DNA of 64,000 nt from a virus (Duplodnaviria > Heunggongvirae > Uroviricota > Caudoviricetes), in IMG/VR virus record IMGVR_UViG_3300032516_000008, positions 29,092 to 93,091 of that record. The stretch is one strand, 5' to 3'. Position 1 is the stretch's first letter. The number at the start of each line of letters is the position of its first letter. The position numbers were made by a program, and so were the translations under genes. Under the pieces are notes generated by a model. It had not been told where the DNA came from and did no database searches. It saw only the letters and a list, made by a program, of their open reading frames with translations. This document shows, in pieces, positions 19,837 through 63,255 of the stretch.

Positions 19837-20004
19837 TCATTCCAGAATTGGTAACTATTGCAAATAGATTGCGTAGCCAAGGACATAGTTCAACAGCTGA
19901 TAAACTACAAGGTAAGCGAGTCATTGTAAAGCCTGCAACAATAAAAAAGACTGACACTACAGACAAAGCAGCTAAATTCAAATTTCTTTGTGAAGGAGAT
20001 TAAA

Positions 20005-26176: not shown

Positions 26177-27277
26177 ATGAGTACAAAAACAAAAATACAG
26201 AGCGTTTGTTTCACTATCACTGGTGAGTTCATGACTGATCATGCTAGAAGTCTGGTTGTTGAGAATGAATGGGAAAATGCCGTTAGATTTTTGAACAAGT
26301 CTCTTGTTGGCATAGATTTCAATACAATTGTAGCAGTGCTTTCAGGCACAACAGAGTTTACTGGTGATTCAAATGTAGGTATAGGACTGACTAAAAAAGC
26401 AGATGTCAAGTACATGCAAAGACTTGACGAAATGTATGGCCATTATGTAAGAATTGGTCAGAAATGGTTTGTGCCATATTCTTATGTGACGTCTTATGGA
26501 TTTCATGACATTTCATATTACAAAGACAATTTCTCAACTGTCAATTTTGATCAAAGAAGAAATCTAAATGCTGATCAAGAGGTTAGCGACAGTAGGGCAA
26601 GATTCTATTGTAAAGATAAAGATAAAGACAGGATATTTTGTCTCAAATGTCCTGATCGAGAGATGCATTGCGTATTGTTTGAGAAAATAGCTGCGCCGCC
26701 AGTCTGGATGGACGTCGAGAAGACGCCGCAACAAGCAGTAAATGCTTGCCGGAATCTTCAAGAAGATGGTCATTTGTTCCGTTATACTACTGAAGATTTG
26801 CCTATAGCTTTTCGAAAGAAGTATGATGAAGAAGACATTGTAGTCTCAGAGCGAAATGAAGACAAAGAAACACAAGAAAAGCGAATAGAATTAGAGCGAC
26901 CAATAATAGATTCTCAATTGACGTCAAAGTTTGGTTGGTTTAGTCCAGAAGGACAGTTTTACGGATGCGAATATGCAGGTCATATTTATATGGCTGAGAG
27001 AATTGTAAGAATCACATTGAGCAATGTTGACTGGGAAGATGACACAGGATACATAAACAACAGATCAGAATGCATACTTGAAGATCTTGGTTGGATCAAG
27101 GTTGGAGGATTCGGTCAGAATTCATATTTTACTGGAGATAAATTAAAGGCAACACAGGCGCAACAAAACTCAGTTTATGATTGGTGTACAAAGCACAATG
27201 AAAGATATCCAACAGAATATTTCGAAGCAAACATGGCAACGTGCAGTGACAATTTCAATAAATTAAGAGAAGATTAA
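26177..27277 (+). CDS. hypothetical protein
   Basis: Long ORF. The start is uncertain between 26117, 26177 and 26231. Confidence 0.4.
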   Translation: MSTKTKIQSVCFTITGEFMTDHARSLVVENEWENAVRFLNKSLVGIDFNTIVAVLSGTTEFTGDSNVGIGLTKKADVKYMQRLDEMYGHYVRIGQKWFVPYSYVTSYGFHDISYYKDNFSTVNFDQRRNLNADQEVSDSRARFYCKDKDKDRIFCLKCPDREMHCVLFEKIAAPPVWMDVEKTPQQAVNACRNLQEDGHLFRYTTEDLPIAFRKKYDEEDIVVSERNEDKETQEKRIELERPIIDSQLTSKFGWFSPEGQFYGCEYAGHIYMAERIVRITLSNVDWEDDTGYINNRSECILEDLGWIKVGGFGQNSYFTGDKLKATQAQQNSVYDWCTKHNERYPTEYFEANMATCSDNFNKLRED

Positions 27278-27286
27278 ATCTTTACC

Positions 27287-27682
27287 GTGAAAAACTATTT
27301 GAAAGTTCTTTCTGTTCCCACATGGGTTTATCATTCTCTTGATGAGCTTGATGAAGCGTCTTCGGATCTTTGCGAGATATCTCCCGTATTGAACAGAGAC
27401 GGATACTACTACAATAGAAAAACGAGAAAAACGTGGATTGAATTTAATCATAAAGCTTGGAATTATTCAACTGTCGAGGCATTTGAATCTGAGCTAAAAC
27501 ACATAGATCCAGAGATGGAAACGAATGTATATCAAAGTCTGTTATCAATTGTGAAAAAGTATAGAATTTCATTCAGAAATCTTGAAAGTAGATTCTGGAC
27601 CGAGTATCGAACTAGGGAATTGAGAGATATTAGGCGAAATGCATCTTTATGTTGTTTGGGAATATTGAGGAAGTCCCAATAG
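27287..27682 (+). CDS. hypothetical protein
   Basis: ORF. Confidence 0.35.
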   Translation: MKNYLKVLSVPTWVYHSLDELDEASSDLCEISPVLNRDGYYYNRKTRKTWIEFNHKAWNYSTVEAFESELKHIDPEMETNVYQSLLSIVKKYRISFRNLESRFWTEYRTRELRDIRRNASLCCLGILRKSQ

Positions 27683-30730: not shown

Positions 30731-31312
30731 ATGAACGAGTGGTGGGTAGGTATGTCAGCAATTGAACACGTCTATTGGTTCATTGCAGTTATAGCAAGCA
30801 CAGCATTGCTTATTCAAGCAATCTTGACATTTGCTGGTATGTCGCATGATTCTATTGACTTTCATCACGATGTGTCAAGTGGTCATGGTGACATGCAAGC
30901 TCATTTTCAATTGCTAAGTATTAGATCGCTAGTTGCGTTTTTCACAATGCTTGGTTGGAGTGGCATAGCACTAATTCATGCAAAAGGTGCATTGAACAAT
31001 CCTGTTTTGGTTGTAGTTGTATCGATTATAGTCGGTAGTGTATTTGCTGTGGTAGTTGCTGGTTTTTTCTATGGAATGACAAAGTTAGTTAGTAGTGGTA
31101 ATGTAGATATCAAAAATACGATTGGTCGAACAGCTAGTGTTTATTTGAAAATTCCTGCTAATATGTCAGGTACTGGAAAAGTGAATGTCATGATTCAAAG
31201 TCAAGTAAGAGAATTTGATGCCATGAGTAAAGATCTTACGGCAATTCCGTCAGGGTCACCAGTAAAAGTAGTAGATGTCCAAAACAATACTTTAATCGTT
31301 GAAAGGGGCTAG
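30731..31312 (+). CDS. YqiJ/NfeD-like membrane protein
   Basis: Two N-terminal transmembrane helices plus a C-terminal OB-like soluble domain. AAGGAGGG ribosome-binding site. Lies immediately upstream of the flotillin gene, as in the yqiJK operon. Confidence 0.55.
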   Translation: MNEWWVGMSAIEHVYWFIAVIASTALLIQAILTFAGMSHDSIDFHHDVSSGHGDMQAHFQLLSIRSLVAFFTMLGWSGIALIHAKGALNNPVLVVVVSIIVGSVFAVVVAGFFYGMTKLVSSGNVDIKNTIGRTASVYLKIPANMSGTGKVNVMIQSQVREFDAMSKDLTAIPSGSPVKVVDVQNNTLIVERG

Positions 31313-31313
31313 T

Positions 31314-32708
31314 ATGTATCTGTTGATTGCTGCAGCAGCTGGCGTCATTATCTTGTTCGTGCTTTTTATCTCGGTTCTTACGAGGTATAAGAAGTGTCCG
31401 TCAGACAAGATATTGATTGTGTATGGAAAAGTGGCAAAGGGTAGTACTTCAAAGTGCATTCATGGTGGTGCGGCTTTTGTATGGCCTATCATTCAAGACT
31501 ATGCATATTTGGGTCTTACTCCAATGCAAATTGAAGTACCATTGCAAAATGCATTGAGCAAACAGAATATTCGAGTCGATGTGCCTTCAAATTTCACAGT
31601 TGGTATTTCAACAAAGCCTGAGATTATGACGGCTGCTGCTGAACGACTTTTGGGTTTACAATCCAAAGAGATTCAGGGTATAGCTAGGGAAATTATCTTT
31701 GGCCAACTTCGTTTGTCAGTAGCAACAATGGACATCGAAGAAATTAATGCTGATAGAGACAAGTTCCTTGAGAACATTTACAAGAATGTTGAAGTTGAAC
31801 TTGAGAAGATCGGTCTGCGATTGATCAATGTCAATATTACTGACATTCAAGATGAATCTGGTTACATCAAGTCTCTTGGGCAGAAAGCTGCTGCAGAAGC
31901 ACTTAACAAGGCTAAGAAAGATGTAGCTGAGAAAGATCGTGATGGAGCAATTGGTCAGGCAAATGCTGATAGAGATAAGAGAGTGCAAGTTGCAGGTGCA
32001 AATGCTACAGCTGTTGAAGGTGAAAATGCAGCTCAGGTGACAATTGCAAATTCAACATCAGATATGCGACAGAAGAAAGCTGAAGCTGAACGAGCAGCTA
32101 TAGCATCAGAAAAGGTTGCAACAGCAAAAGCTTTGCAAGAAGCCTATGCTGCTGAACAAATTGCTGAAGCGACTCGTGCAGACAGAGAAAGAGCTACACA
32201 GACTGCCAATGATGTTGTCAAAGCTGAGATTGACAAAAAGAAGATTGAGATTGCGGCTAGTGCTCAGGCTGAGAAACTGCGACTTGAAGCTAGAGGTCAA
32301 GCAGATGCCACATATGCTAACCTTGAAGCTCAGGCAAGAGGACTTAAGGAGATGTTGATCAAGCAGGCTGAGGGATTGAAAGAGATTGTTGCAGCTGCCG
32401 GTAACAATCCACAGCAGACTCAGCAAGCAGCAATGTTGATGATTATCGATAAGTTGCCTGAAATAGTCAAGACTCAGGTTGAGGCTATTAAGGGTATTAA
32501 GATCGATAAGGTTACTGTTTGGGACGGTATGGGTAATGGTTCAGGCAATGGCAAACCAACGACTGCCAATTTCTTGTCAGGTATGCTTGGATCAGTTCCT
32601 CCATTGCAAGACTTGTTCAATATGGCAGGAATGAAGTTGCCAGAGTATTTGGGAAAGACTCCTGAGAAACCGGCAATTACAACTGAAACAACTGAAGTTA
32701 AGGGCTAA
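31314..32708 (+). CDS. flotillin-like SPFH-domain protein (YqiK/FloA-like)
   Basis: N-terminal transmembrane helix, SPFH/band-7 domain, and a long Ala/Glu/Gln-rich coiled-coil (EA repeats). Confidence 0.75.
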   Translation: MYLLIAAAAGVIILFVLFISVLTRYKKCPSDKILIVYGKVAKGSTSKCIHGGAAFVWPIIQDYAYLGLTPMQIEVPLQNALSKQNIRVDVPSNFTVGISTKPEIMTAAAERLLGLQSKEIQGIAREIIFGQLRLSVATMDIEEINADRDKFLENIYKNVEVELEKIGLRLINVNITDIQDESGYIKSLGQKAAAEALNKAKKDVAEKDRDGAIGQANADRDKRVQVAGANATAVEGENAAQVTIANSTSDMRQKKAEAERAAIASEKVATAKALQEAYAAEQIAEATRADRERATQTANDVVKAEIDKKKIEIAASAQAEKLRLEARGQADATYANLEAQARGLKEMLIKQAEGLKEIVAAAGNNPQQTQQAAMLMIIDKLPEIVKTQVEAIKGIKIDKVTVWDGMGNGSGNGKPTTANFLSGMLGSVPPLQDLFNMAGMKLPEYLGKTPEKPAITTETTEVKG

Positions 32709-39029: not shown

Positions 39030-39175
39030 CCGAACCGATTGCGCGCGATCAATTTTTCAAAATGAAAGCAAAAGTGTAGGGGCTAATTACAGCGACCCTT
39101 GCGCGCCATTTTTTTAATAAATCCTAAATTCAAAGTTTTATAATCTACTATATTCAATTAGATGTGCGCGCTACA
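39030..39175. promoter_or_regulatory. three spaced GC-palindromic TGCGCGC motifs in AT-rich convergent intergenic region
   Basis: gattGCGCGCgatc (about 39037), cttGCGCGCcatt (about 39096), atgtGCGCGCtacat (about 39160), about 60 bp apart. Confidence 0.3.
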
Positions 39176-39866: not shown

Positions 39867-42800
39867 TTTTGTATTTTCTTGATGCTTGAAAATGCTCTAT
39901 AACAGGTTTGCCAGCATCTTTCATTAAGTCAAATATTTGGCAATAAGTGGATGGCAAATGAAATACTTTCAATGAATGTAATGTGCTGACTGCCTCATGC
40001 AAATAAGATTGATCGAGTCTGTATTTCGTTCTATCTGCATTTACTAATTCAGTCCATTTAGCTAACAATTTTAGTGCACCGATAGTACAGTTGAAATACA
40101 TAGTGCCACCAAGAAGTTCAGTACTACCATTTGATTTAATTCTTGGATGAAATGCGAAATCAAACTCATTTAATGTAGATAGAAGTTGCGGATCTTGCTG
40201 TATTATGGCATCACAATCTACCCATACTACAGGTCGGTTATGCTTATTTAGCATGTCTTTGACAAATGTTGTACGATAGAAACAGTTATTGAACCAACTT
40301 CCTTGTGAATTAATACCGACAATTTCATAATCTAAATTGAATCGCCTTAATGAAGCTTCCAACTTCTTATATTCGTTTTCATAGCCTGTATTTTTTGTGT
40401 AGTAAGATATGAATAATGGTTTTACTAATCTAGATATCACAGGAGCGCATTCGACTTTTGCTATGTCATCAGCACATTCAACTTTTGCTATGTCAGGAAC
40501 ACATTCGATTTTTGCTATGTTAGATATGGGTTGCAATTTCAACGGTTCATGTTCAATTTGTATTTGCGGTTTAGTTACTGGTTTTGCTAGTTCACATTGA
40601 ATTAATTCTGAAAAAGTAGTTTGCTCAGTTTGTACTTCTAAGTTGTCGAATGTTAATTCATTTGAATTTGGTAATGACTGTATGAATTCATCGCCAAGAT
40701 TTTTTATGTCTTTGAATTTGTTTTGCATAATTAATTCAAACGCTTTATCCCATAAACTTTGATTAGCGGCCCAACTAAAAAACTTCAAAATATACTGTCT
40801 ATTTCTCTTACCTACTTCTTGTCGCAGTGACTTACTATTACTAAGTAATGACAATCGATTGTTCATTTCTGAAATAACATTTTCTTCAGGCAATGTACTT
40901 ACGATCCATTCTTTATCTAACAACATTCCTATACAACCAACCCTTGTTGAAACTACAGGCAATCCACAAGACATGGCCTCTAATACTACTCTTGGCATAC
41001 ACTCGCTAATACTTGTCAATACTAGTACATCAATTGAGTGATAAAATAACTTCATGTCATTTAATGATCTACCATCAGAGAAAAACTGCTTGCCCCAGTC
41101 ACTTTTCTTAATAACATTGAATTTTAGTTTATTTAGTAAATGTGGTCGCTTTACATCACGCAAACAACCGGCCCAACCAACTATAAAGTTATTGTCATCT
41201 TTCACGGCTGCAGTAAAGAAGTTGGTATCAATTGATTCTGGTAGAAACGCTACAGACTTATTAGGATACATGTTGTTCAAACAGTCCAGATGTCTCATAG
41301 ATATTGACACTATAAGATCTGGGTCAGTGTCATATTTTAGTTTTGATTCTCCACCATAACCACCAATAACTTTGATGCCTTTTTGTTTTAATACTGAAAC
41401 TAGACTGTTGATTTTAGCATGATCAATATTTGGTGCATGAATGTACACTATGTCTGCATCTATGTCAGTGACATCGATTAATCGTTTGTATGTGATATCA
41501 TGCGAAGAATACAGTTGTTGTTCTTTTGCTACAAAATAGTATGCCCAACCAAATTGGTCAATTATTTTGCAAATTCTAAGCTTTTTAGGAACTGGTTTAG
41601 ACTGTGTTACTATTTGTTTTGTTAGTGGCTTATATTCATCCCAATTTCTGAAACACATTTTGCATGTGTCTGTCATCTTATTAACGTCACATAAACTGTC
41701 TCTTAGTTTTCTAGCACTATCATTTAACCAAACATTTTCAAAATTCTTAAGTGATCCATTAGCTCTATTTGGTGCATAAACTGATCCGCAAAATGTTACA
41801 CTACCATTGCCGTTTATTCCTATTGTAGTCCAAGGTATTTGACAATTGCAACGAACTTCATTACGGTTTATTAATGTCGGAAATACCTTAATCAAATTAG
41901 CTTCGGGCAGATCTTGTAATGCATCAATTTTATGCTTGTCATCATATGTTAACACTTCTTGCCAAAACGACTCGTCATTATAATCGCTTGCTAAGTGCGG
42001 TAACAGATTTAATAAGTGCACAGTCTTTACACCTAAAGAGTTCACTAACGTCAAAAATTCAGGAATATATCGTAGATTACTTTTTGTGCATACGTAGGAA
42101 CAATACGTGGGTAAACCATTACTTACGCAGAGTCCTATTCCTTGTAAGACAGTATTAAATATCAATGATTTGTTTATTTCATTATGCATCTTTGCATTTG
42201 ACGCGTTTAAGCTTATAGATATATAGTCTGGTCTGTTTGCTAATAGGCTATTGATTTTTTCAACTATTAGTGATCCGTTTGTTATTAGTCCAACAACTTT
42301 GTTTCTTGATTTTAGAAATGATATGATGTCAAAAAGACTATCACATAAAAAAGGTTCTCCGTAGCCAGCACAACAAACGCCTCTAATTGATGGATGTTTG
42401 ATTAACAGATCACTGACATTTTTTAGTGTCATGTCAATCGACTGTTCAATTGATTGCGAATTACGATAGCAAAATCTGCAGTTGAAATTACATTTTGATG
42501 TTAGATACAGGTTTGCACTAACAGGTGGATTCATAAAACTTCTCATTGTTTCAAACGATGTATTTCTGTTTCTAAAGTCTTTCTCACCAACTTGAACAGC
42601 GTCTGTAATCAGACTTGTATATGCACCAAGTAAAGCATATAAATTCTGTTCAGTTGGTTCAGCTTTCAACATTGACCATAACTTTACAGGTAGGTCACTC
42701 ATCCAGATATATTTGAACTGTTTGAATTTGTCAAGTAAATTACGATATCTATCAAATATTCCTTCATTAGACCAATATGGTGCATGCTGGCCAACTACAT

Positions 42801-44731: not shown

Positions 44732-45309
44732 TCTTGCACAGTTAGTAAATTGAGTATTTGCTTTCTATACTTACAAAGAAAAGCAAAATCAAACATTGTT
44801 TCAGCACATTCAAATAATTCTTGCTGTCCTGGCTTTATAATTCCAATGCCTTCATCTACATCAATAGTACAGATTGACAAATTAGGATCAAACATTCTAT
44901 AAAACAATATTGCTTTCCAAACTGATCCGTTCCAATGAGACACAGTAATGTTCTCTGTTTGATGAACTTCTAATTCAGGATTACAATCATGTAAAAGTAT
45001 AATTCCGTCAGTACTCAAACATTTTAGTGAATTTGAAATGTCTTTGATCACTTGAGCTGCTTTGTGATCGCCGTCTATAAAAATGATATCGTATTGACTA
45101 GTATTACTTGAGAAAAATGCATCAGAACTCATAAGATGATTACAGGGATTTACAGGATCAACTGCATCTTTTACTGCAGCACTAATTTTGTTGAAATTGG
45201 CAGATGCATTTCCAATGCCTATTTCAAGATAACGACAATTTTGTTTTTTGCTTGTGTAGAAATTGATGATGTCTGTTCTATTCATGATTTTTTCCAGTAT
45301 GCTCCCCAA
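44707..45309 (-). CDS. SAM-dependent methyltransferase (CmcI/class I-like)
   Basis: IFIDGDHKAAQVIKD...DGIILLHDC. Confidence 0.45.
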   Translation of the reverse strand: MGSILEKIMNRTDIINFYTSKKQNCRYLEIGIGNASANFNKISAAVKDAVDPVNPCNHLMSSDAFFSSNTSQYDIIFIDGDHKAAQVIKDISNSLKCLSTDGIILLHDCNPELEVHQTENITVSHWNGSVWKAILFYRMFDPNLSICTIDVDEGIGIIKPGQQELFECAETMFDFAFLCKYRKQILNLLTVQEWQLMEQR

Positions 45310-45983
45310 GCGTCAATAATGACGATCGGATCGTGAATATTATGTAGTTTTCTAAAATCTTCAACAGCTGTTCTGCAATTTACCCAGTTATAATCATCAA
45401 TAATAACGAACCCATTTTTCTGGACTTTATGATATAACGCAGTTAATGAATCCCAAGTTGACTCATATAAGTCACCATCTAATCTCAATACAGCAATTTT
45501 ATCTATCATACTATTTGTAAGAGTATCTTTGAACCAACCCTTTAGAAATACTACATTAGTGTCTAGTAATGCATACTTTTCAAAATTATGCTTTACTTGA
45601 TCAACATCAACTCTTAAATAGTCAATGGTATGCATAGTACTATTCTTGTCAATTGGATACTTTTCTGTATTAGGCGCAGGCAAACCTTGAAAAGAATCAG
45701 CTACAAACACTTTTCGATCTGTAATATTGTATGCTTTCAAAATACCTTGCATAAAAATTACAGCACCACCACGCCACACACCGGTTTCAATTAGATCACC
45801 TTGCACATCATTTGCTATAACACTTTCGACACAATGTTGTATATTGTCAAGTCGTTTACGGCCTATCATAGTGAACGCTCGCTTAGGCCAATACGTACCA
45901 TTAGTTGTATGAGTCGTCTCTTCTTCATATATTATGTCAAGCAACGATCGCTTCAGCAAATCTAAGTACAGCTCTTTACACAT
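45282..45983 (-). CDS. TylF/MycF-family macrocin-type sugar O-methyltransferase
   Basis: FTMIGRKRLDNIQHCVESV...GDLIETGVWRGGAVIFMQGIL...RKVFVADSFQGLP matches the TylF signature. Confidence 0.7.
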   Translation of the reverse strand: MCKELYLDLLKRSLLDIIYEEETTHTTNGTYWPKRAFTMIGRKRLDNIQHCVESVIANDVQGDLIETGVWRGGAVIFMQGILKAYNITDRKVFVADSFQGLPAPNTEKYPIDKNSTMHTIDYLRVDVDQVKHNFEKYALLDTNVVFLKGWFKDTLTNSMIDKIAVLRLDGDLYESTWDSLTALYHKVQKNGFVIIDDYNWVNCRTAVEDFRKLHNIHDPIVIIDAWGAYWKKS

Positions 45984-46796
45984 TTAGTACTCAAATCTAT
46001 TCATTGTGTTAACGCTTGCATGTATTTGACACGTGTTATTAATGTCACCTCGTAAAATACATATCCATAAGCCTGCATTGTTAGTATCATAAACTACATA
46101 CTTACACTTACTCAAAATAGCAATCGCAGCCAAATAATTGACACCCAAATCGTAATTACTCATTTTTGTATCACGTTGTAAATTATGCATCACTTGATCT
46201 GTTTTTGTCAACGGCATTTCTTCAATGTGAAACGAATTAGGTAACTCGTGTTTGAAATAGTCTAATGCCTGTTGTTGATCTGTCTGTATAAGTACCCTAT
46301 AATTTGAAATGTCCTTAATCGGACTGATTGGTTTCAAATAATACTTTGGATGCACTCTTGGCACTTCAAGAATTTTATCAGTACCTCTATAAAGAATTGC
46401 AATAGTGTGATCAAAATCTATACTGTACTTTTGAATAAATGATTCTTGTTTAACTATTACTTCACTAGACAAATTGAAATATGTATCTCTAATTGGTTTT
46501 AGTACACTAAAATCAAACTTATTACAATCACCAATCATTGCATTAAAATAAATGTCTTGTCCTGTCTTAATATCACTGTTAACTGTCGTAAAATATAGAT
46601 CATAAACATTTCGACTCAATCTGTCAGGCTTGTTCCAAGCTGACGTATATGGCCATAATATTTTCACAAGTCTTGACGCATTTTTGTGTATCGATAGTAG
46701 ACTCTTAAATGTCACGCTAGCATTAGATAACAAACCACAATCATGTTTGTCAAGACTTAATGTGCTATTTTCTTGATCGTATGTTACGCCGTACAT
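45984..46796 (-). CDS. hypothetical protein in glycosylation island
   Basis: ORF tightly packed in the operon (ATGA overlaps). Confidence 0.4.
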   Translation of the reverse strand: MYGVTYDQENSTLSLDKHDCGLLSNASVTFKSLLSIHKNASRLVKILWPYTSAWNKPDRLSRNVYDLYFTTVNSDIKTGQDIYFNAMIGDCNKFDFSVLKPIRDTYFNLSSEVIVKQESFIQKYSIDFDHTIAILYRGTDKILEVPRVHPKYYLKPISPIKDISNYRVLIQTDQQQALDYFKHELPNSFHIEEMPLTKTDQVMHNLQRDTKMSNYDLGVNYLAAIAILSKCKYVVYDTNNAGLWICILRGDINNTCQIHASVNTMNRFEY

Positions 46797-49196: not shown

Positions 49197-50438
49197 ATGA
49201 ACATATGTAAATGCGGTAAATCATTCAAAAATGCAGGAGCGCATGCTATTCATCGTAATAGTTGTCTTTATGTTAAGCATCCAAAAGAATGTGAACTCAT
49301 TAGATCAGATTATAAAAATAAGTTGTTAATTTCAGATATCAAGAAAAAATATTGTTTCACAAGAAATGAAATTCATGCAGTTGTCAAAGACATATTACGA
49401 AGTGATAGCGAGACAAATAAAATTGCCCATACAAACCCTAATAGAAAAAAATATCATAATATCAATAGTAATTTTGCTAAGAAAGTGATGTGTGAAAAAT
49501 GTAAAAGAACAATTAGTGTTGTAAATCTTTATAAACATACTTGTGTAAGTGAAGAAGTTCGTGAAAGTATAATCAAGTTATATAATCTAGGCTTATCACC
49601 AAGGGATATAAGAGCGAAAGGATATGACAAAAGGGTCATTAGTTTTTCATTAAGTCATAAAAGACGATCTTTGTCTGATTCTATTAAAGCTAGATATAAA
49701 AATCATCCAGAGACATTTAAGCTTTCTAAAGCAACAAAAGATAAGATTAGACAATCAATATTAAAAGCTAGACAAAATGGAATTGCTTATAGTTGGACAA
49801 GAAAGAAGCCATCATATGCTGAAAGTAAATTTCACGAATTTTTAGTTAAGTTAGGATTGAAAGAAAATGTTGATTTTTTTACAGAATTTCCATTTTCTAT
49901 TTATAGAGCAGATTTTTATTTTCCAAAACATAAACTTGTAATTGAGATTGATGGTGAACAACATGTAAAATATGATGTAATACGAGAACGAGATAAACGA
50001 AAAGATGAATATTTGAAAAATCATGACATTAAAGTTTTAAGGATAAGATGGAAAGATGTGCATCATAATCATGAAGTAATTTATGATGAAATTAAAGACA
50101 TTTTGAATAATTCACAAAACTTTGAATTAAGACTAGATACTTTCACTAAAGCACAAGCTAGACGGTTACAACTATTGACAGAGTTTGAAATAAATCGTGA
50201 TCAATTAAAAATTGAAAAGCAACAAATAAAAAAGCTAGAGCAACAAGCTAGAACTGCACAACAAACTAAAGACATTTTACAAAGTGATTTTACAAAGCGT
50301 GGCACAGTCGAAAATCTTAGTAATAAATGGAATGTCTCACATACACAAGTTAGACGGCTCGTGAATAGATATATGACATGCTGTGCGGGCAACCGCTTAG
50401 GGGTTCGAGTGCCTTCTCGTCAGCCATTAGTTGCATGA
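49197..50438 (+). CDS. free-standing homing-endonuclease-like protein (N-terminal Zn-finger/NUMOD-like repeats + DUF559/Vsr-like PD-(D/E)xK nuclease domain)
   Basis: CKCGK...H...C motifs and a C-terminal YRADFYFPKHKLVIEIDGEQH...RDKRKDEYLKNHDIKVLRI. Confidence 0.6.
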   Translation: MNICKCGKSFKNAGAHAIHRNSCLYVKHPKECELIRSDYKNKLLISDIKKKYCFTRNEIHAVVKDILRSDSETNKIAHTNPNRKKYHNINSNFAKKVMCEKCKRTISVVNLYKHTCVSEEVRESIIKLYNLGLSPRDIRAKGYDKRVISFSLSHKRRSLSDSIKARYKNHPETFKLSKATKDKIRQSILKARQNGIAYSWTRKKPSYAESKFHEFLVKLGLKENVDFFTEFPFSIYRADFYFPKHKLVIEIDGEQHVKYDVIRERDKRKDEYLKNHDIKVLRIRWKDVHHNHEVIYDEIKDILNNSQNFELRLDTFTKAQARRLQLLTEFEINRDQLKIEKQQIKKLEQQARTAQQTKDILQSDFTKRGTVENLSNKWNVSHTQVRRLVNRYMTCCAGNRLGVRVPSRQPLVA

Positions 50439-52891: not shown

Positions 52892-52898
52892 TGGAAAT

Positions 52899-52970
52899 GC
52901 CTCGATAACTTAGCGGTCAAAGTGACGGTCTCTAAAACCGTTATCGCCAGTTCAAATCTGGCTCGAGGCA
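52899..52970 (+). tRNA. amber suppressor tRNA (anticodon CTA, reads UAG); short variable arm, discriminator A
   Basis: Acceptor GCCTCGA/TCGAGGC, D-arm ACTT-AGCGGTCA-AAGT, anticodon arm ACGGT-CTCTAAA-ACCGT (U33, anticodon C34 U35 A36), T-arm GCCAG-TTCAAAT-CTGGC. Confidence 0.7.
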
Positions 52971-53142
52971 TTTTTCATAGCTATTCTAATTGACTATTAT
53001 ACTATGGCTAAAAACATAAGCTGTAGAGTCTGCAGTAAATCATTCAATGTCAAAGAATCGACGCGTGTATACGGAGACATACCAGCAAATCACAGATGCT
53101 GTTCTGCGCGATGTTATACAGAATTTTTGAAAGGTGTAGATA

Positions 53143-53664
53143 ATGACGCCAGCACAACTAAAAGCACAACTAATTAGTCGAGTGCATCGTCTGAATGAGT
53201 TTCTTAAGATGCCAGAGACTCCTGACTGGATTATTGACAATGAACGGAAGTTTATTGAAAGGTCGTACCAACATCTAAAAGACATTGGTATAGACGCGCA
53301 GCAATATCTAGAATCTGACCAGGGTAAGACTGACTATCTCATGTATGCAGTAGATCATGACGGTCGAAATGCTGCAATAGACCGTTGTACTAGCTGTGAG
53401 CATTATGAAATGATTGATTTAGAAATTGGCAGAACTGATATTCAGTGCGAACTGAAAGTTGAATTGTTTCCTGATGCTTGTCGTGCTTTTCGTGAAGCAG
53501 AAGATTGTGATACACGATTTCAAATGATGTCATTAGAACGATGTCAAAATTGTCACAATGCTGTTATGGTCAAAGAATTTAATGACATAGAATTTCCTTA
53601 TTGCTCAAAAAAGCTAAATCGTATTAAAAGAGATTGTTTGAGTTTTGATCCAAAGGAATTTTGA
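53143..53664 (+). CDS. Cys-rich hypothetical protein
   Basis: ORF. Confidence 0.4.
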   Translation: MTPAQLKAQLISRVHRLNEFLKMPETPDWIIDNERKFIERSYQHLKDIGIDAQQYLESDQGKTDYLMYAVDHDGRNAAIDRCTSCEHYEMIDLEIGRTDIQCELKVELFPDACRAFREAEDCDTRFQMMSLERCQNCHNAVMVKEFNDIEFPYCSKKLNRIKRDCLSFDPKEF

Positions 53665-54332
53665 TGAAGCGATCTACTCTAATCGAATCAAAAATTCGAG
53701 CGTACAATCCAAAAGGCGATCTTGCACACACTGCTCGTTTAATTCTGGCCATGTGTGATGTGAATCATGTTTCTACAAAAGATCATTTGGAAAGAGTAGC
53801 ACTGCTTGCAGAAGCAACAGCAAAGAAACTGCGAAAAGATGCAAAAGCTGCCTTTTTTGCAGGTCTTCTACATGATGCCGGCAAACTTTTACTGCCAGCT
53901 CAGTTATTTGACGGACATAACATAGATGCAGTAGAATACGATAATGTAAAAACTCATGCCCAAGCAGGCTACAAGGCTCTCAAGAAGCTGCACATGTTCA
54001 CGGCTCTTTGTGCAGGTTTGCATCATAATCTTTACAAAGCAGGTTACGGTTTAGATCGAAATGCTTTTCCTGAGAATTGGTCACCGTCAACTATCAAAAA
54101 AGTTTTGGAAATTTCAACAATCATATCTATTTGTGATTTTGTGGATGCTTTTAACAACAGAAAAACAGAAATCAAAGACGGATCTGATAAAATTGAACAA
54201 CCGGATTTGAAAAGCATGCTGTATACAAAGTACGGAGATGACAAAGAAGTCGTCGATATTATTCTTTTTCTATACAAGACTTGTAATTTCAATACTTGGA
54301 CAAAGCATGTTTCACGTACCAAATCTGTATAG
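53661..54332 (+). CDS. HD-domain phosphohydrolase (HD-GYP-like features)
   Basis: H...HLERVA...LLHDAGK...GLHHNLYKAGYGLD (compare HD-GYP HHE..DG.GYP). Confidence 0.5.
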   Translation: MMKRSTLIESKIRAYNPKGDLAHTARLILAMCDVNHVSTKDHLERVALLAEATAKKLRKDAKAAFFAGLLHDAGKLLLPAQLFDGHNIDAVEYDNVKTHAQAGYKALKKLHMFTALCAGLHHNLYKAGYGLDRNAFPENWSPSTIKKVLEISTIISICDFVDAFNNRKTEIKDGSDKIEQPDLKSMLYTKYGDDKEVVDIILFLYKTCNFNTWTKHVSRTKSV

Positions 54333-54672
54333 ATTTCGAAAGCAAAATCATCCATATACGAGCGAAGACTCGGATGGTAACAATGGCGCATTTTTTGTGC
54401 CAACTACAAACTGCATGACAGTGTTTGCTATAGCTAGTGACGGTTATGGTTGGGAGCACGTTTCAGTGTCATTGAAGAATCGATGTCCAAATTGGATTGA
54501 AATGAGTGAAGTCAAAGATCTATTTTGGGATCAAGAAGATGCAGTTTTTCAATTTCATCCTCCCAAAAGTCTATATGTAAACCAACATCCTCATTGTTTA
54601 CATTTGTGGCGGCCAATAGGAATTAACATACCAATTCCTGATCCTGCTCTAGTTGGACTCAAAAATGTATAA
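54307..54672 (+). CDS. hypothetical protein
   Basis: ORF overlapping the 3' end of the HD gene. The start is uncertain. Confidence 0.3.
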   Translation: MFHVPNLYRFRKQNHPYTSEDSDGNNGAFFVPTTNCMTVFAIASDGYGWEHVSVSLKNRCPNWIEMSEVKDLFWDQEDAVFQFHPPKSLYVNQHPHCLHLWRPIGINIPIPDPALVGLKNV

Positions 54673-54684
54673 GGAGATGAAGGC

Positions 54685-54882
54685 GTGAAAGCAGTTTACA
54701 ATATAGACCCTGATCAGGGTGCTGTAGCGTTGCTTACTAAAGTAACGTTGCCCGGATACAAAGTGGTAAAAATTACTCGAAAAGGTAAGATCGCTACAGT
54801 AGAATATGATAAGGTTACTATAGGAATTCAAATACCAATTCTTGACTCTATTCTTGTTGGAACAAGTCGTGATTTGTCTTGA
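54685..54882 (+). CDS. small hypothetical protein
   Basis: TAAGGAGA ribosome-binding site, GTG start. Confidence 0.3.
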   Translation: MKAVYNIDPDQGAVALLTKVTLPGYKVVKITRKGKIATVEYDKVTIGIQIPILDSILVGTSRDLS

Positions 54883-55714
54883 ATGTAATAAAGTGGTTAG
54901 GGCAATAGTTTATAGACATTTACAGTCATGTTGTGGATTGAGTGTTAGAGAGTACAAGAAAAAGCATGGTGTAACTAAGATTGCTGATGATGACGTTCTA
55001 AATTCTTATGCTTGTAAAGACGAAAAGAATGGACGATGGATAGGACGAAAATTAGTAAAAAGCTTTTGTCTAGATTGTGGCAAGCAGTTGAAGAGGAGGC
55101 CGGGCCCAAAAGCGTCAGGATTGTGTAAGTCATGCGTTCAATTAGGAGAACGTAACAATTTTTATAATAAAAAGCATTCGTTAAAAGCTCGCGAGCAAAT
55201 GAAGAAGAATCATTATGATTGCTCGGGAGAAAATAACAGTTTCTTTAATAAGACGCATTCAACTGACTCATTACAACTTATGAGTCAGTCACATGTTGAA
55301 AATTGGAAAAATTACAGTAATGAGAAAAGATGGCAGATTTTAATAAATTGGATTTGCGCGGGCACAGCTAAACATTCAAAAACTTCAATAGAAGAAACTA
55401 TTAATTCAGTTTTGCTATTTCTTGGATTAAAAGAAGTTGATGACTATAAGAGGAACACTCAAATTGGTAAATACAATGTTGACTTTTTAGTGTATAAGAG
55501 GCTAATAATAGAGTGCTATGGTGATTATTGGCACAAGAATCCAAAATATCATAATTCATCAAATGATGAAGTAAAACGACTAAAAGATTTAGAAAGAGCG
55601 CGTTATTTAGAAAGTAAGGGTTATAAGTTTCTGTATTTTTGGGAAGATGAAATTAAAAATGACATTAAAAGTGTGACAGACAAAATGATAATGTTTTTAG
55701 AAAGTGAGAAATGA
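54842..55714 (+). CDS. free-standing homing-endonuclease-like protein (Zn-finger + NUMOD3-like repeats + DUF559/Vsr-like nuclease domain)
   Basis: CLECNK...C, CLDCGK...CKSC, repeated NNFYNKKHS / NSFFNKTHS motifs, C-terminal KYNVDFLVYKRLIIECYGDYWH. Paralogous to the C-terminus of the 49197 gene. Confidence 0.6.
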   Translation: MTLFLLEQVVICLECNKVVRAIVYRHLQSCCGLSVREYKKKHGVTKIADDDVLNSYACKDEKNGRWIGRKLVKSFCLDCGKQLKRRPGPKASGLCKSCVQLGERNNFYNKKHSLKAREQMKKNHYDCSGENNSFFNKTHSTDSLQLMSQSHVENWKNYSNEKRWQILINWICAGTAKHSKTSIEETINSVLLFLGLKEVDDYKRNTQIGKYNVDFLVYKRLIIECYGDYWHKNPKYHNSSNDEVKRLKDLERARYLESKGYKFLYFWEDEIKNDIKSVTDKMIMFLESEK

Positions 55715-56878
55715 ATGTTTTCATATAAAAAAGATCAATTTCGTGTGCCAGTAAAAGTCTGGATGAACGAAAGTAGCTATTATGCTGATGATGCAATGGT
55801 TAAACAAGTAGAGAATTTGGCAATATTACCTTTTGTATTTAGTCATATTTCTTTGTCTCCTGACGGGCACGTTGGCTACGGGATGCCAATTGGCGGCGTT
55901 ATGGCAACCAAAGGCGTCATAGTTCCAAATGCTGTTGGTGTTGACATTGGTTGCGGCATGTGTGCAGTTAAGACGTCATTGCAATCAATTGACAAAGATG
56001 AATTGAAAAAGACAATGGGAAGGATTCGTGAAGCAGTCCCTGTAGGATTCGAACATCACAAAGAGAAAATATCGTGGGAAGGGTTTGATCGAGCACCTAA
56101 TGTAGCAATTATTCAACAGCAATTGAGTACAGCACAGACTCAGCTTGGTACGCTAGGAGGTGGCAATCACTTCATTGAGATTCAAAAGGGATCAGATGGT
56201 TTTGTTTGGGTCATGCTACATTCTGGTTCTCGGAATTTTGGCTTGAAAATAGCCAATGAATATCATAAGAAAGCACAATGGCTATGCGAGAAATGGTATT
56301 CGAGTATACCCGACAAAGACCTTTCGTTTCTTCCAATGGAAACAAAAGAAGCACATGAATACTTTGATGTCATGAAGTTTGCACTTGAGTTTGCAAAAGA
56401 GAACAGATTTCGAATGATTGACGCAATAAAACAATCATTTGATATTTCAGGAATTACGTTTGATGAAACAATCAACATTCATCACAATTATGCAGCTTGG
56501 GAACATCATTTTGGTGAAGATGTCATTGTTCACAGAAAAGGTGCGACATCAGCCAGAAAAGATCAAATCGGATTGATACCCGGTTCTCAAGGTACAAAAA
56601 GCTATGTAGTACGTGGCAAAGGTAATGAAGATTCATTCATGTCATGCTCGCACGGTGCTGGTAGAAAAATGGGACGGAAACAAGCACAAAGAGAATTGAA
56701 TTTAGATGCCGAAAAGAAACTACTTGATGATCAAGGCATCATTCATGCCATTCGAAATAAAGCTGACTTAGATGAAGCTGCCGGTGCTTACAAAGACATA
56801 AGTGTTGTTATGGACAATCAAAAAGATTTGGTGGATATTGTAGTAGAACTTTCACCATTAGCTGTCATAAAAGCATAA
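55715..56878 (+). CDS. rtcB: RtcB-family RNA 3'-phosphate ligase
   Basis: VGVDIGCGMCAV, GGGNHF, HHNYAA, and SCSHGAGRKMGR metal/GTP-binding motifs. Length 387 aa. Confidence 0.85.
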   Translation: MFSYKKDQFRVPVKVWMNESSYYADDAMVKQVENLAILPFVFSHISLSPDGHVGYGMPIGGVMATKGVIVPNAVGVDIGCGMCAVKTSLQSIDKDELKKTMGRIREAVPVGFEHHKEKISWEGFDRAPNVAIIQQQLSTAQTQLGTLGGGNHFIEIQKGSDGFVWVMLHSGSRNFGLKIANEYHKKAQWLCEKWYSSIPDKDLSFLPMETKEAHEYFDVMKFALEFAKENRFRMIDAIKQSFDISGITFDETINIHHNYAAWEHHFGEDVIVHRKGATSARKDQIGLIPGSQGTKSYVVRGKGNEDSFMSCSHGAGRKMGRKQAQRELNLDAEKKLLDDQGIIHAIRNKADLDEAAGAYKDISVVMDNQKDLVDIVVELSPLAVIKA

Positions 56879-56890
56879 CTGGAGGAAAAA

Positions 56891-57088
56891 ATGAGCAAGG
56901 AGTCTCGGCGTAAAAGTGCTTTGACCAGAGTCATCAAGTATTTCACAACGGCAGTTGATGCTGGCAACAAAGACATGGCCGGCAAACACTTTGTAATTCT
57001 TCAAAGTACTGCTACAGCTCTTGGAAAGATAGAAGAAGTCAAGAAAGATCTGGCTGGCACAATTTCAAAGTTTCAGAAGATGACATGA
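56891..57088 (+). CDS. small hypothetical protein
   Basis: GGAGG ribosome-binding site. Confidence 0.35.
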   Translation: MSKESRRKSALTRVIKYFTTAVDAGNKDMAGKHFVILQSTATALGKIEEVKKDLAGTISKFQKMT

Positions 57089-57121
57089 AATCAACTAAAC
57101 TTTGCGCATCAAAACACAAGT

Positions 57122-58015
57122 ATGTTGAATACTGGATTTAGCGAGATCACTGAAGAGCGAGTAAAGTATACAGGAAATGGTTTCTGGTACTGTGAACTTG
57201 CTTTAACAGGAGTATGCAACTTTCATTGTAAGTATTGCAATAGACTAAGATCAGAAATCGATTATGAAACTGTTCGCAAATTCATTTACGCTGAACGAAA
57301 TTCTTTACGCCACATTCAATTGACGGGCGGAGAACCTACAACCAGTATTTATTTGTACTACTTATGCAGTTTTATAAAGGCTCACAAAATCAGGTTAGGG
57401 CTTTCAACAAATGGTTCTGCATCATTAGATTTGTACAAAGGTCTTCATGTAGATATGTTTTCGATATCACTTGATGATTATGATACTCAAATACTGATTA
57501 ATCGAGGTTATGAAAATCCTCAGCGTGTAATCGATAACATCAAAGCGCTATCTAAATTGACGTATGTCAACGTTGGTATTGTAATTGACTCACTCAATCG
57601 AGATAGAATTGAACAGATCATTCAGTATGTCCTTGGGCTTGGCGTACATGACATAAAGTTGTCAATTTCAACACATGATGAAGTCATGCCTGTATTTAGT
57701 GATTGCGATTATTCAAAGTATCCTATTTTGAATTATCGCGTGACAAGATTCAGACAAGGTAAAAACATGCGAGGGATTGATAGACCTTTCAAGTGCGAGA
57801 TTGCAAAGAGTGATATCTCTATAGTAGGTACAAAACATTATCCTTGTTTAGTTTATGCTAGAGAAAAGGGTAATGCTATTGGTGAAATGTCAGGAGACAT
57901 TAAAACAGATCGATTGAAGTGGTATAAGAAACACGAACCGAAAAATGATCCTATTTGTAGTAAGTATTGTATGGATTTCAAGTGTGATTTCAATCTAGCA
58001 GTTGGAGAGAAATAA
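57122..58015 (+). CDS. radical SAM enzyme (MoaA/viperin-like core) with C-terminal Cys-rich auxiliary-cluster-like region
   Basis: CNFHCKYC (C-x3-C-x2-C), QLTGGEPT, and C-terminal C...C..C plus CSKYCMDFKC. Confidence 0.6.
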   Translation: MLNTGFSEITEERVKYTGNGFWYCELALTGVCNFHCKYCNRLRSEIDYETVRKFIYAERNSLRHIQLTGGEPTTSIYLYYLCSFIKAHKIRLGLSTNGSASLDLYKGLHVDMFSISLDDYDTQILINRGYENPQRVIDNIKALSKLTYVNVGIVIDSLNRDRIEQIIQYVLGLGVHDIKLSISTHDEVMPVFSDCDYSKYPILNYRVTRFRQGKNMRGIDRPFKCEIAKSDISIVGTKHYPCLVYAREKGNAIGEMSGDIKTDRLKWYKKHEPKNDPICSKYCMDFKCDFNLAVGEK

Positions 58016-61897: not shown

Positions 61898-62620
61898 ACT
61901 GCTACATTTAACATCCAGCTATAAAGTCATTGATGAAATTTGCATAATATATTTCATGCAACTAACTTATAAATTCACTTCTAAACATACTAACGCTAGC
62001 AAACTAGAGTCTATACGAGAACTCTCTAAAGTTTACCAGAAATACTATAATACATTATTTAGTGAAGAGTTAATAATCACTGGAGTGATTCTATCACTTA
62101 TGTTAGAAAGTAACGAGTCAATGTTAGCTTTCGCTTGTTGTTCGCATGTTTGCTTGTATCGTTCTGAAAAGTTCTCATTAGAGAATTTTTCTATTATAGG
62201 TAGATATTTGGGTAGTGACCCGTTTTTGTAGAAGTCGTGTAGGCTTTTAGACACGACTGATACTAAAATAATTCTTCATTATATCAATAAATATCATCTA
62301 TGGTTTCGTGAGTCAGTCAAGATAAGAAATACAGACGTCCCTCAAGAGCTAATGAAACTAGTAAGTTTGGTTTATCTACGCTTGTTAAAGTGATTATTGT
62401 TTTATATTCTCAGGAATATTCAAGAAAACCTGAATACTTTGAAAAACACGAGAGTGTAATGCAAACCCTACAACTTCATACTGCACCTATAAAACGTGTC
62501 AAGCGACACGCAGTGTTGGGGTTGTCCTATTTATCATGGCTATCAGTTGGATACGAAGGCTATGATAAATCGTGGACAGGCGGGGCTTGAGTTAATCCTA
62601 AACACTTAGGCTAAACACAA

Positions 62621-62656
62621 AACCCCGCCGGTCAAATCGATCGACGGGGTTTTTCT
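62621..62656 (+). terminator. rho-independent terminator
   Basis: CCCCGCCG...CGACGGGG followed by TTTTTC. Confidence 0.65.
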
Positions 62657-62858
62657 ATTTTAGGGAGGCTCGCCATGGACAAATTTGAAGTCTCAAAATG
62701 CTTCCTCCCTAAAGACACATTTGACGATTTTGTTGAAATGGCAAAACAAGAACAAAAATGGGGCCGGAAACCAAAACCAATCACAAAATTGGTCTGGCAA
62801 AATGATAACTTGAAAGGAGCGAGTCCAAATGGACAGTGACAAATCTGACAAACGTTTG

Positions 62859-62948
62859 GGCTCCGTCACCTAGCGGATCGAGGGTAACAGATTTTTAATC
62901 TGTCTGAGCTTACGGCTCACATCGCAGGTTCAAATCCTGCCGGGGCCA
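62859..62948 (+). tRNA. type II (long variable arm) tRNA with anticodon TTT; identity ambiguous (Leu/Ser-like body, Lys anticodon)
   Basis: Acceptor GGCTCCG/CGGGGCC (one GU pair), 3-bp D-stem with 12-nt D-loop, anticodon arm ACAGA-TTTTTAA-TCTGT, variable arm TGAGC-ttacg-GCTCA, T-arm GCAGG-TTCAAAT-CCTGC, discriminator A. Confidence 0.55.
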
Positions 62949-62958
62949 CTGAATTTAT

Positions 62959-63036
62959 GGTGGATGTAGCTCAATTGGCTAGAGCATCGGATCGTGATTC
63001 CGAAGGTTGTGGGTTCGAGGCCCATCATTCACCCCA
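62959..63036 (+). tRNA. tRNA-His (anticodon GTG) with encoded G-1 and CCA
   Basis: G-1 pairs with discriminator C73. Acceptor GTGGATG/CATTCAC, D-arm GCTC-AATTGGCTA-GAGC, anticodon arm TCGGA-TCGTGAT-TCCGA, T-arm GTGGG-TTCGAGG-CCCAT. Confidence 0.7.
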
Positions 63037-63090: not shown

Positions 63091-63164
63091 GCCCGCATAA
63101 CTCAGTTGGCTAGAGTAAGTCACTTTTAATGACTAAGCCGTTGGTTCAAATCCAACTGCGGGTA
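63091..63164 (+). tRNA. tRNA-Lys (anticodon TTT)
   Basis: Acceptor GCCCGCA/TGCGGGT, D-arm ACTC-AGTTGGCTA-GAGT, anticodon arm AGTCA-CTTTTAA-TGACT, T-arm GTTGG-TTCAAAT-CCAAC. Confidence 0.8.
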
Positions 63165-63178
63165 CTTACATTGAATTA

Positions 63179-63255
63179 GGGCGCGTAGCAAAGTTGATTA
63201 ATGCACTTGATTCTTAATCAAGAGATCGTCAGTTTGAACCTGACCGCGCTCACCA
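63179..63255 (+). tRNA. tRNA-Lys (anticodon CTT), CCA encoded
   Basis: Acceptor GGGCGCG/CGCGCTC, anticodon arm CTTGA-TTCTTAA-TCAAG, T-arm GTCAG-TTTGAAC-CTGAC. Confidence 0.65.

Follow-up and report, generated by a model that had tools for sequence, protein, structure and literature searches.

A long-armed tRNA with a lysine anticodon in an uncultured phage is a member of a widespread, mainly phage-borne tRNA class

In textbooks the long variable arm of bacterial tRNAs is confined to the Leu, Ser, Tyr and Sec isotypes. We describe here a tRNA of an uncultured phage (~37% G+C) that combines such an arm with the Lys anticodon UUU. It is encoded at positions 62859-62948 of a 64,000-nt window, the whole stretch of DNA that was analysed (positions 29,092 to 93,091 of IMG/VR record IMGVR_UViG_3300032516_000008), and is called the focal tRNA below. 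The gene is a member of a widespread, mainly phage-borne class in which type-II architecture is joined to type-I identity. On balance we think it probable that the focal tRNA is a working Lys elongator, charged by lysyl-tRNA synthetase (LysRS), whose arm most likely serves escape from immune tRNases. The gene and its parts are as follows.

62859-62948, + strand: long-variable-arm tRNA, type-II architecture, 7/5, anticodon UUU, A73, no encoded CCA (ARAGORN, Rfam, minimum-free-energy (MFE) fold)
62859-62865 and 62941-62947, + strand: acceptor stem, GGCUCCG with CGGGGCC, 7 bp including U4.G69 (sequence; family alignment)
62868-62885, + strand: D arm, ACCU-AGCGGAUCGA-GGGU, of the Ser/Tyr type (AGCGG, then UCGA) (sequence comparison)
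62887-62903, + strand: anticodon arm, ACAGA-UUUUUAA-UCUGU, with anticodon UUU at 62894-62896 and U33, A37 and A38 (sequence, ARAGORN)
62904-62923, + strand: variable arm, CUGAGCUUACGGCUCACAUC, 20 nt (sequence, MFE fold)
62924-62940, + strand: T arm, GCAGG-UUCAAAU-CCUGC, one loop base different from the E. coli lysT T arm (sequence)
62948, + strand: discriminator A73 (sequence)

A first-pass annotation, made from the letters alone, had proposed a type-II tRNA with anticodon UUU at this position, and ARAGORN, Rfam and the MFE fold all agree with it. ARAGORN calls a 'Lys' tRNA at 62859-62949 (+) with anticodon ttt at position 36 and a length of 91 nt that includes one trailing base; the tRNA itself is a 90-nt, 7/5 cloverleaf. 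The tRNA model of Rfam (RF00005, model positions 1-71) covers 62859-62948 end to end and scores 52.8 bits, where 29 is the gathering score. The MFE structure, a cloverleaf to which a further hairpin is added, has -35.8 kcal/mol (z = -4.18), and none of 200 shuffles folds as stably. The D stem, ACCU/GGGU, has three Watson-Crick pairs and U13.G22, which makes 4 bp with a 10-nt loop; the 3-bp stem and 12-nt loop of the first-pass annotation are the same structure with that last pair left uncounted. The variable arm consists of a C, a stem strand UGAGCU (62905-62910), the loop UAC, the second strand GGCUCA (62914-62919) and an unpaired tail CAUC (62920-62923), so that its helix has six pairs, one of them U.G. 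Type-II tRNAs are defined by a variable region of more than 10 nt that forms a stem-loop, as this one does. The universal tRNA features U8, A14, G18G19, the TUC loop and the 7/5 stack are all present, and positions 9 and 26 are C9 and A26.

Other foldings were tried and rejected. A shifted register that would give the anticodon UAA (Leu) or UUA (ochre) is unsupported by any 5-bp anticodon stem. In the 8/4 fold of the allo-tRNAs the eighth acceptor pair would be U opposite C, and a tRNA-Sec has an 8/5 body, a 6-bp D stem and UCA, whereas the focal tRNA has a 7/5 body, a 4-bp D stem and UUU.

The same stretch is found on a 99.6-kb ENA contig (L001, ERZ27248201) and on a 12.6-kb JGI contig (L003, 3300031707), and the focal tRNA is identical in both. 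Its 18-nt D-arm sequence occurs once in IMG/VR, in a related phage, about 80% identical, on the 128-kb contig L011, where the flanking sequence matches the window at 75-90% identity. The syntenic tRNA of L011 differs from the focal tRNA at 3 of 90 positions. One change turns the wobble U into C, so that the loop reads UUCUUAA and the anticodon, now CUU, is still that of Lys; the other two lie in the extra arm and keep its pairing (A-U to G.U, and U.G to U-A). The gene order in L011 is long-arm tRNA, His, Lys(UUU), Leu(UAG). The conventional type-I Lys(CUU) gene that lies near the focal tRNA is missing from the syntenic spot of L011. No tRNA of L011 other than the long-armed one was seen to carry CUU, and both Lys anticodons are thus covered in each phage. 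Judged from these sequences, such a pattern would be expected if selection acted on a functioning decoder of lysine codons.

More distant relatives are numerous. Searched by blastn against GenBank phages, the focal tRNA gave only three partial T-arm matches, and T-arm matches led to Xanthomonas phages X1 and BUDD, which carry an 86-87-nt tRNA with anticodon CUU beside a normal Lys(CUU). A search with the X1/BUDD sequence added XacN1, Serratia phage BF, six Erwinia jumbo phages and two ~635-kb uncultured phages; in one of these two, a type-I Lys(UUU) gene precedes a run of three long-arm genes (UUU, UUU, CUU). IMG/VR was scanned with the junction motif 'CAUC + T arm', which gave 118 loci (L026-L143, at most 15 kb per contig) with 876 distinct tRNAs, 14 of them long-arm Lys tRNAs. 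A scan of 185,579 species genomes with the pattern 'Lys(UUU) loop, 20-29 nt, T loop', which requires UUU and a consensus T loop, yielded 81 stretches, of which 31 are long-arm tRNAs (30 with anticodon UUU, one called UUA); most of these lie in loci with 4-26 tRNA genes, i.e. in phage-like DNA.

Altogether we collected 57 distinct long-arm tRNAs with Lys anticodons from cultured jumbo phages such as XacN1, X1, BUDD and Serratia BF, from huge uncultured phages, from IMG/VR and from a few contigs of metagenome-assembled genomes (MAGs). Their anticodons are UUU (44) and CUU (13) and no other, a restriction that is informative for 26 members only, as the other 31 come from the scan that required UUU. 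The discriminator is A in 42 and U in 13; UUU tRNAs with discriminator U and an acceptor stem of the form GGAC../..GUCC-U were seen in L164, L173, L174, L177, L188, L205, L211, L218, L223 and others. The variable regions measure 13-20 nt, most commonly with the 3' tail CAUC, and 53 of the 57 arms fold as hairpins of at least 3 bp with 38 different stems, compared with 32% of shuffled arms. The focal tRNA and its L011 homologue have the longest arm and are the sole members with U32. In a 10-sequence alignment of cloverleaf and arm, 97.4% of cells are paired and 15 of 23 pairs have changed on both sides, which none of 500 shuffles reaches and which collapses in slid controls. All seven acceptor pairs are preserved in the family alignment, five with compensatory changes, and the two arm pairs that can be aligned covary with 100% of cells paired.

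We ranked the neighbours of the focal tRNA over 63 positions, with the arm and the anticodon loop excluded. The nearest are the long-arm Lys tRNAs of BUDD, X1 and XacN1 (44-47/63), followed by the long-arm Asn tRNA of XacN1 and the long-arm Lys tRNA of LR745206 (43 each) and then by Tyr tRNAs (41.5); the type-I Lys tRNA of the same phage shares 35. The D-arm type of the focal tRNA is common to the long-arm tRNAs of XacN1, X1 and LR745206. The Serratia BF member is built differently, as it aligns full length with E. coli lysT apart from a 10-nt insertion in the variable loop, and in its 5' half it matches the usual tRNA-Lys genes of many enterobacterial phages at 93-97% identity; lysT was compared directly, blastn of the BF tRNA against E. 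coli genomes having given no match at the E-value limit. The long-arm Lys form thus appears to have arisen more than once, by a BF-type insertion into a type-I body and as the XacN1/focal type with a type-II D arm. As delimited in this analysis, the phage long-arm Lys tRNA group has a 7/5 body, a Lys anticodon, A73, a hairpin arm with an unpaired CAUC-like tail and a D loop of the form AG(Y)GG..CGA, all of which the focal tRNA shows. A search of full-text literature turned up no account of long-arm Lys tRNAs with a 7/5 body in phages, although absence from the library searched is not proof.

Solitary long-arm tRNA(UUU) genes with A73 were also seen in Actinomycetota MAG contigs (L155, L156, L157, L166, L168, L190), flanked by DsbA-like, thiolase and alcohol-dehydrogenase genes and with no integrase or tRNA cluster in view. 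They may encode a cellular long-arm tRNA-Lys. Compared by tblastx, the synteny among these actinobacterial loci was noisy.

Long-arm forms are not limited to Lys. Phage XacN1 (L022) has four more:

39053-39138: long-arm Gly(UCC), discriminator U
42569-42659: long-arm Thr(UGU), discriminator A
45202-45290: long-arm Cys(GCA), discriminator U
45979-46067: long-arm Asn(GUU), discriminator G

Together with its long-arm Lys tRNA (A73), each carries the discriminator expected for its isotype, and in Gly and Thr the first acceptor pairs are also as expected. In the IMG/VR sample, with 'long' taken as at least 80 nt without CCA (a few odd calls are possible), 107 long-arm tRNAs belong to isotypes other than Leu, Ser and Tyr: Thr 26, Lys 14, Asn 14, Met 12, Pro 10, Ile(UAU) 6, Gly 5, Cys 5 and others. 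The discriminator equals the short-form majority of the same isotype in 88 of the 107, a rate equal to that of the short forms themselves (470/594); shuffling gives 38 +/- 4.6 matches, and none of 10,000 shuffles reaches 88. Charging irrespective of the anticodon is therefore unlikely, since a scaffold charged in that way would have no reason to retune its discriminator. An early notion that only isotypes of class IIb synthetases (Asn, Asp, Lys) were concerned was dropped, because long-arm Thr, Gly, Cys, Pro and Met tRNAs are also found.

The long-arm form is enriched at anticodons ending in U (Thr, Lys, Asn, Met, Ile), with an odds ratio of 3.3-3.4 (p = 2e-8; p = 6e-5 after removal of the tRNAs with the scan pattern). 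It is concentrated at Thr UGU, Asn GUU, Met/Ile CAU, Lys and Ile UAU, and tRNA-Ile(UAU) is long-armed in 6 of 13 cases. Of 126 long-arm genes, 99 have no short tRNA with the same anticodon in their locus (13 of 15 among the Lys genes), and in the IMG/VR loci L064 and L097 both Lys anticodons are on long-arm tRNAs only. With most of them lacking a short partner, and with these two loci, the long-arm genes look like decoders and not like spares. A 424-kb contig (L044) resembles the phage of the window in that its long-arm Lys(UUU) is accompanied by a conventional one. The reverse swap was seen in Xanthomonas phage X1 (L025), where tRNA-Leu(CAA) and tRNA-Leu(CAG) of 74-75 nt (8506-8583 and 27276-27352) have no long variable arm.

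Which amino acid the focal tRNA carries can be judged from its identity elements. Lys identity resides in the anticodon and A73, and UUU moved into other tRNAs confers Lys identity (PMC9976931). The focal tRNA has this set, U/C34-U35-U36 (UUU, and CUU in L011) with A73; it lacks the type-I body of cellular tRNA-Lys, whose variable loop has 4-5 nt (20 nt compared with 5 nt in E. coli lysT). The codons concerned appear to have their usual meaning, and reassignment of AAA/AAG was rejected: when the phage RtcB is aligned with six homologues, K is the top residue opposite both AAA (65/150) and AAG (11/35). AAA is moreover the second commonest codon (47 per 1000), so that its systematic misreading would be very costly. 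The Lys identity set, the tracking of isotype by discriminators, the normal meaning of AAA/AAG and the abundance of AAA favour a faithful Lys isoacceptor, and we consider it likely, as far as sequence can tell, that the focal tRNA is charged with lysine. T-stem composition, tried as a Lys-versus-Tyr discriminator, is uninformative in phage tRNAs.

The first-pass annotation had instead suggested a Ser/Leu-type body that is mis-acylated, an idea that the comparisons do not bear out. A tRNA-Ser is recognised by G73 together with the long variable arm (PMC7609411); G73 and an encoded CCA are found in each of the phage's three Ser tRNAs, and the A73 of the focal tRNA speaks against Ser identity. 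A73 is compatible with Leu, but the D loop, UAGCGGAUCGA, is unlike the GAAUUGG/GAAAUGG type of the four Leu tRNAs of the phage. Nor are Ser or Leu tRNAs its nearest relatives, which are long-arm tRNAs with Lys anticodons; the discriminator follows the isotype of the anticodon across the 107 long-arm tRNAs of 'type-I' isotypes; and in Serratia BF the long-arm tRNA is clearly a tRNA-Lys of enterobacterial type whose variable loop has received a hairpin. A residual risk of mischarging remains, and it concerns tyrosyl-tRNA synthetase (TyrRS) and not the Leu or Ser enzymes.

Nuclease evasion, which the first-pass annotation had listed as an alternative, seems to us the best account of the arm. In the mechanism we propose, a long variable arm and a type-II D arm would have been placed on normally type-I isotypes that retain their own identity marks. 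The focal tRNA would read AAA, and probably AAG, and would most likely be charged with lysine by the host LysRS. The extra arm would alter the shape of the elbow/anticodon-stem region, and host tRNases that deplete tRNA-Lys (PrrC, PARIS AriB, Schlafen-type) could then not bind the focal tRNA or could not cut it, with the result that lysine decoding would continue during infection. The phage would keep the focal tRNA as a second, structurally different Lys(UUU) isoacceptor beside the conventional one and an RtcB repair ligase.

Defence tRNases attack tRNA-Lys(UUU) recurrently: it is cut by PrrC (PMC10264068), by PARIS AriB, which cleaves between positions 40 and 41 and also targets Thr(UGU) and Asn(GUU) (PMC12409363), and by the Schlafen enzyme RorSlfn5 (PMC13056530), and resistant phage tRNA variants rescue infection from such tRNases (PMC10264068, PMC12409363). 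The variable arm exits the core beside the 3' strand of the anticodon stem, where a rigid 6-bp helix could plausibly block enzymes that grip that face. The pairing of a conventional with a long-arm Lys(UUU) in the phage of the window and in L044 is consistent with a counter-defence role; the enrichment at U-ending anticodons is also consistent with it, if suggestive only, and no more than suggestive are the RtcB, HD and PTH2-like genes around the tRNA clusters. We put the counter-defence role of the arm forward tentatively. More speculative again is its general form, by which phages would rebuild tRNase-exposed type-I decoders of ANN codons (Lys, Thr, Asn, Met, Ile) on a long-armed scaffold: with the identity marks kept, host synthetases would still charge these tRNAs, and nucleases that read the shape of the anticodon stem or elbow would no longer cut them.

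Several observations weigh against this reading, some of them at the level of charging. LysRS, a class II synthetase, is expected at the variable-region side of the tRNA, where a 20-nt arm could hinder it. The 13 long-arm Lys-anticodon tRNAs with U73 do not fit the Lys identity set, and the focal tRNA has the complete core set of bacterial Tyr identity, A73, U35 and G1-C72 (PMC9976931). The isotypes of the survey come from ARAGORN anticodons only, its discriminators were read by script, and the IMG/VR sample was chosen by a T-arm motif. Other points concern the arm. The focal tRNA retains U36-A-A-U-C beside the AriB cut site, only position 41 being different, so that escape from AriB at the level of sequence is not evident. 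Type-II tRNAs or variable loops are themselves cleaved by some nucleases of defence systems, as is reported for Septu on tRNA-Tyr (PMC13096335), and a long arm is therefore not generally protective. Long-arm Pro, Gly and Cys tRNAs exist although these are not known tRNase favourites, and the solitary Actinomycetota genes lie among housekeeping genes.

The last two observations would suit a tRNA that decodes Lys faithfully and whose arm is unrelated to defence; such an arm might be an insertion that is simply tolerated, might add stability, or might give a handle to a phage enzyme of modification, processing or RtcB repair. All the evidence for Lys charging applies to this explanation equally, and no phage context was seen around the Actinomycetota genes. 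We nevertheless regard it as unlikely, given that the helix is maintained by compensatory change across very diverse phages and recurs preferentially on ANN-decoding isotypes; the apparent multiple origins argue for selection as well, though for no particular pressure.

Quite unlikely, in our estimate, is a decoy or sponge, a tRNA that stays outside translation and whose anticodon arm mimics tRNA-Lys to soak up or inhibit its nucleases or some other tRNA-binding factor. The retained U36-AAUC motif and the normal tRNA-Lys(UUU) nearby with the same anticodon would agree with such a role, and the AriB study raises over-expressed viral tRNAs as possible inhibitors (PMC12409363). A pure anticodon-arm decoy would have no need, however, of an acceptor stem and discriminator that are conserved and covarying, and every feature required for the L-shape and the ribosome is kept. 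L011, L064 and L097 each have a Lys anticodon that was seen on a long-arm tRNA only, and a short partner is absent from the loci of most long-arm genes.

Mischarging, in which the type-II body would be charged by TyrRS (less likely by the Leu or Ser enzyme) and Lys codons would partly be read otherwise, as deliberate mistranslation or ambiguous decoding, we judge to be very unlikely. Besides the core Tyr set, it can draw on the Tyr tRNAs being the closest canonical relatives after other long-arm tRNAs. It also has precedents, in the allo-tRNAs, which receive Ser or Ala with any anticodon (PMC5389517), and in the class II nev-tRNAs of nematodes, which have Gly/Ile anticodons and are reported to decode an alternative code for leucine (PMC3333845). 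The Tyr anticodon is GUA, however, and the focal anticodon UUU lacks its G34 and A36; C1-G72 occurs in 5 of the 57 family members and in none of 47 phage Tyr tRNAs of the sample. Family anticodons that are only UUU or CUU are what is expected if the anticodon is an identity element, with weight mainly from the 26 informative members, and the switch of other isotypes to their cognate discriminator (U in Gly and Cys, G in Asn) is sensible only with cognate charging. The G73 required by the Ser enzyme is absent, the D loop is unlike that of the Leu tRNAs of the phage, and general misreading of codons as common as AAA, aligned with K, would be costly. Were the focal tRNA a mischarger, it would be a natural device for recoding Lys codons; the evidence points away from this.

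A pseudogene, assembly error or software artefact, including the misfolded or misaligned loop and the sequencing error that the first-pass annotation had allowed for, has next to no probability, as two programs (ARAGORN returning the same anticodon UUU) and the thermodynamic fold concur, two independent assemblies give an identical sequence, and a third phage has a conserved homologue with flanks 75-90% identical and three changes in 90, all compatible with function.

The focal tRNA belongs to a large tRNA complement. ARAGORN finds 16 tRNA genes in the window, and the phage has at least 25 (24 on L001 and a tRNA-Phe at window position 49054), including three Ser, four Leu, one Tyr and type-I Lys genes for UUU and CUU. 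The conventional Lys(UUU) gene lies downstream of the focal tRNA, as the first-pass annotation had stated, and a Lys(CUU) gene follows it. The neighbouring features are:

55715-56878, + strand: RtcB-type RNA ligase (tRNA repair), between both tRNA clusters (PHROG 1075, E = 1.8e-119; Pfam RtcB)
62960-63036, + strand: tRNA-His(GUG), 11 nt downstream of the focal tRNA, an adjacency repeated in L011 (ARAGORN)
63091-63165, + strand: conventional type-I tRNA-Lys(UUU) (ARAGORN, Rfam)
63179-63255, + strand: conventional type-I tRNA-Lys(CUU), with no such gene at the syntenic spot of L011 (ARAGORN)

The RtcB ligase is part of a tRNA-care neighbourhood at 53661-58015 (+), between the tRNA clusters, together with an HD phosphohydrolase and a radical-SAM protein, and a fusion of a PTH2-like peptidyl-tRNA hydrolase with a zinc ribbon of the NrdR type is encoded further downstream (L001, 19408-19923). 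No aminoacyl-tRNA synthetase was seen among the annotated genes of the window and L001. Other products of the window include helicases, an NAD-dependent ligase, an FtsK-like protein and PolX. A trigger-factor homologue of full length, with Trigger_N, FKBP_C and Trigger_C, is encoded at 19990-21300 (+), and an SPFH/flotillin protein at 31299-32708 (+); genes similar to the last lie near the tRNA clusters of XacN1 ('Band 7') and X1 ('SPFH').

Among the tRNA genes there are two homing-endonuclease-like open reading frames (ORFs), at 49197-50438 and 54842-55714 (+) (DUF559/NUMOD3, HNH PHROG), and a type-I tRNA with anticodon CUA at 52898-52971 (+), of the amber-suppressor type and labelled 'Pyl' by ARAGORN. 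XacN1 has two CUA tRNAs as well. TAG is the stop codon of 11 of 55 crude ORFs of the window, and TAG recoding is thus not evident. Ahead of the tRNA cluster, a hairpin rich in G+C that runs into a series of T, AAAACCCCGCC...GACGGGGTTTTT (62620-62655, +), is terminator-like; the promoter/terminator scan around the focal gene was uninformative and missed this hairpin owing to its long loop. An ORF of 54 codons (62675-62839) lies between this hairpin and the cluster, immediately before the latter.

Relatives of the phage as a whole are hard to find. Megablast of 24 kb against GenBank phages found no related phage, and an exact 27-mer covering the anticodon and variable arm had no match in IMG/VR. 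Relatives sought through a neighbouring 354-aa protein gave none, and those sought through RtcB gave six loci, none with a useful tRNA cluster. When metagenomes were scanned for the D-arm 18-mer, the JGI contig of the phage itself was recovered and, besides it, only four chance matches, none of them a tRNA.

If the reading we favour is true, LysRS of class IIb and, by extension, the synthetases for Asn, Thr and other amino acids must tolerate a type-II body, and tRNA architecture would be an evolvable trait in phages. The long-arm tRNAs would be a candidate means for phages to sustain lysine decoding while their hosts destroy tRNA-Lys, and their scaffolds could serve the engineering of orthogonal or nuclease-resistant tRNAs. 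Naming by anticodon only, as in annotation pipelines, hides this class: GenBank labels the deposited long-arm genes simply tRNA-Lys, and the XacN1 paper does not comment on them.

Those deposited 'tRNA-Lys' genes, of XacN1, X1, BUDD, Serratia BF and Erwinia pEa_SNUABM, encode the same kind of molecule as the focal tRNA, and the Xanthomonas members share its D-loop motif, CAUC junction, T arm and acceptor type; they differ in their shorter arms (3-4 bp with a GAAA-type loop) and in having C at position 32. The canonical bacterial Tyr, Ser and Leu tRNAs have the same 7/5 body, stemmed long arm, 3-4 bp D stem and large D loop, and A73 is common to the focal tRNA, Tyr and Leu, the closest canonical bodies being those of Tyr. 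The focal tRNA departs from them in its anticodon UUU, in the lack of the Ser G73 and the Tyr G34, and in a D loop unlike that of the Leu tRNAs of the phage.

The allo-tRNAs, too, are metagenomic long-arm tRNAs with anticodons of the 'wrong' isotype, for which an example at a Lys codon has been seen once (PMC5389517). Their bodies, however, are 8/4 or 9/3, and their charging with Ser or Ala does not depend on the anticodon (PMC5389517), whereas the focal tRNA is 7/5 and the discriminators of its family follow the anticodon. The nematode nev-tRNAs are eukaryotic class II tRNAs with anticodons of type-I amino acids and are reported to decode an alternative code for leucine (PMC3333845); the phage family has isotype-matched discriminators, and the focal tRNA is unrelated to them.

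A parallel is offered by phage-encoded tRNA-Lys variants that withstand immune tRNases, such as the tRNA-Lys(UUU) of phage T5 against PARIS AriB. T5 likewise carries its own Lys(UUU) isoacceptor alongside tRNA repair functions, but its tRNA is of type I and escapes by point changes at positions 39 and 41 (PMC12409363). In the focal tRNA the AAUC motif is kept and the whole architecture is changed, with a 20-nt arm and a type-II D arm, and the resistance that this architecture may confer is a proposal.

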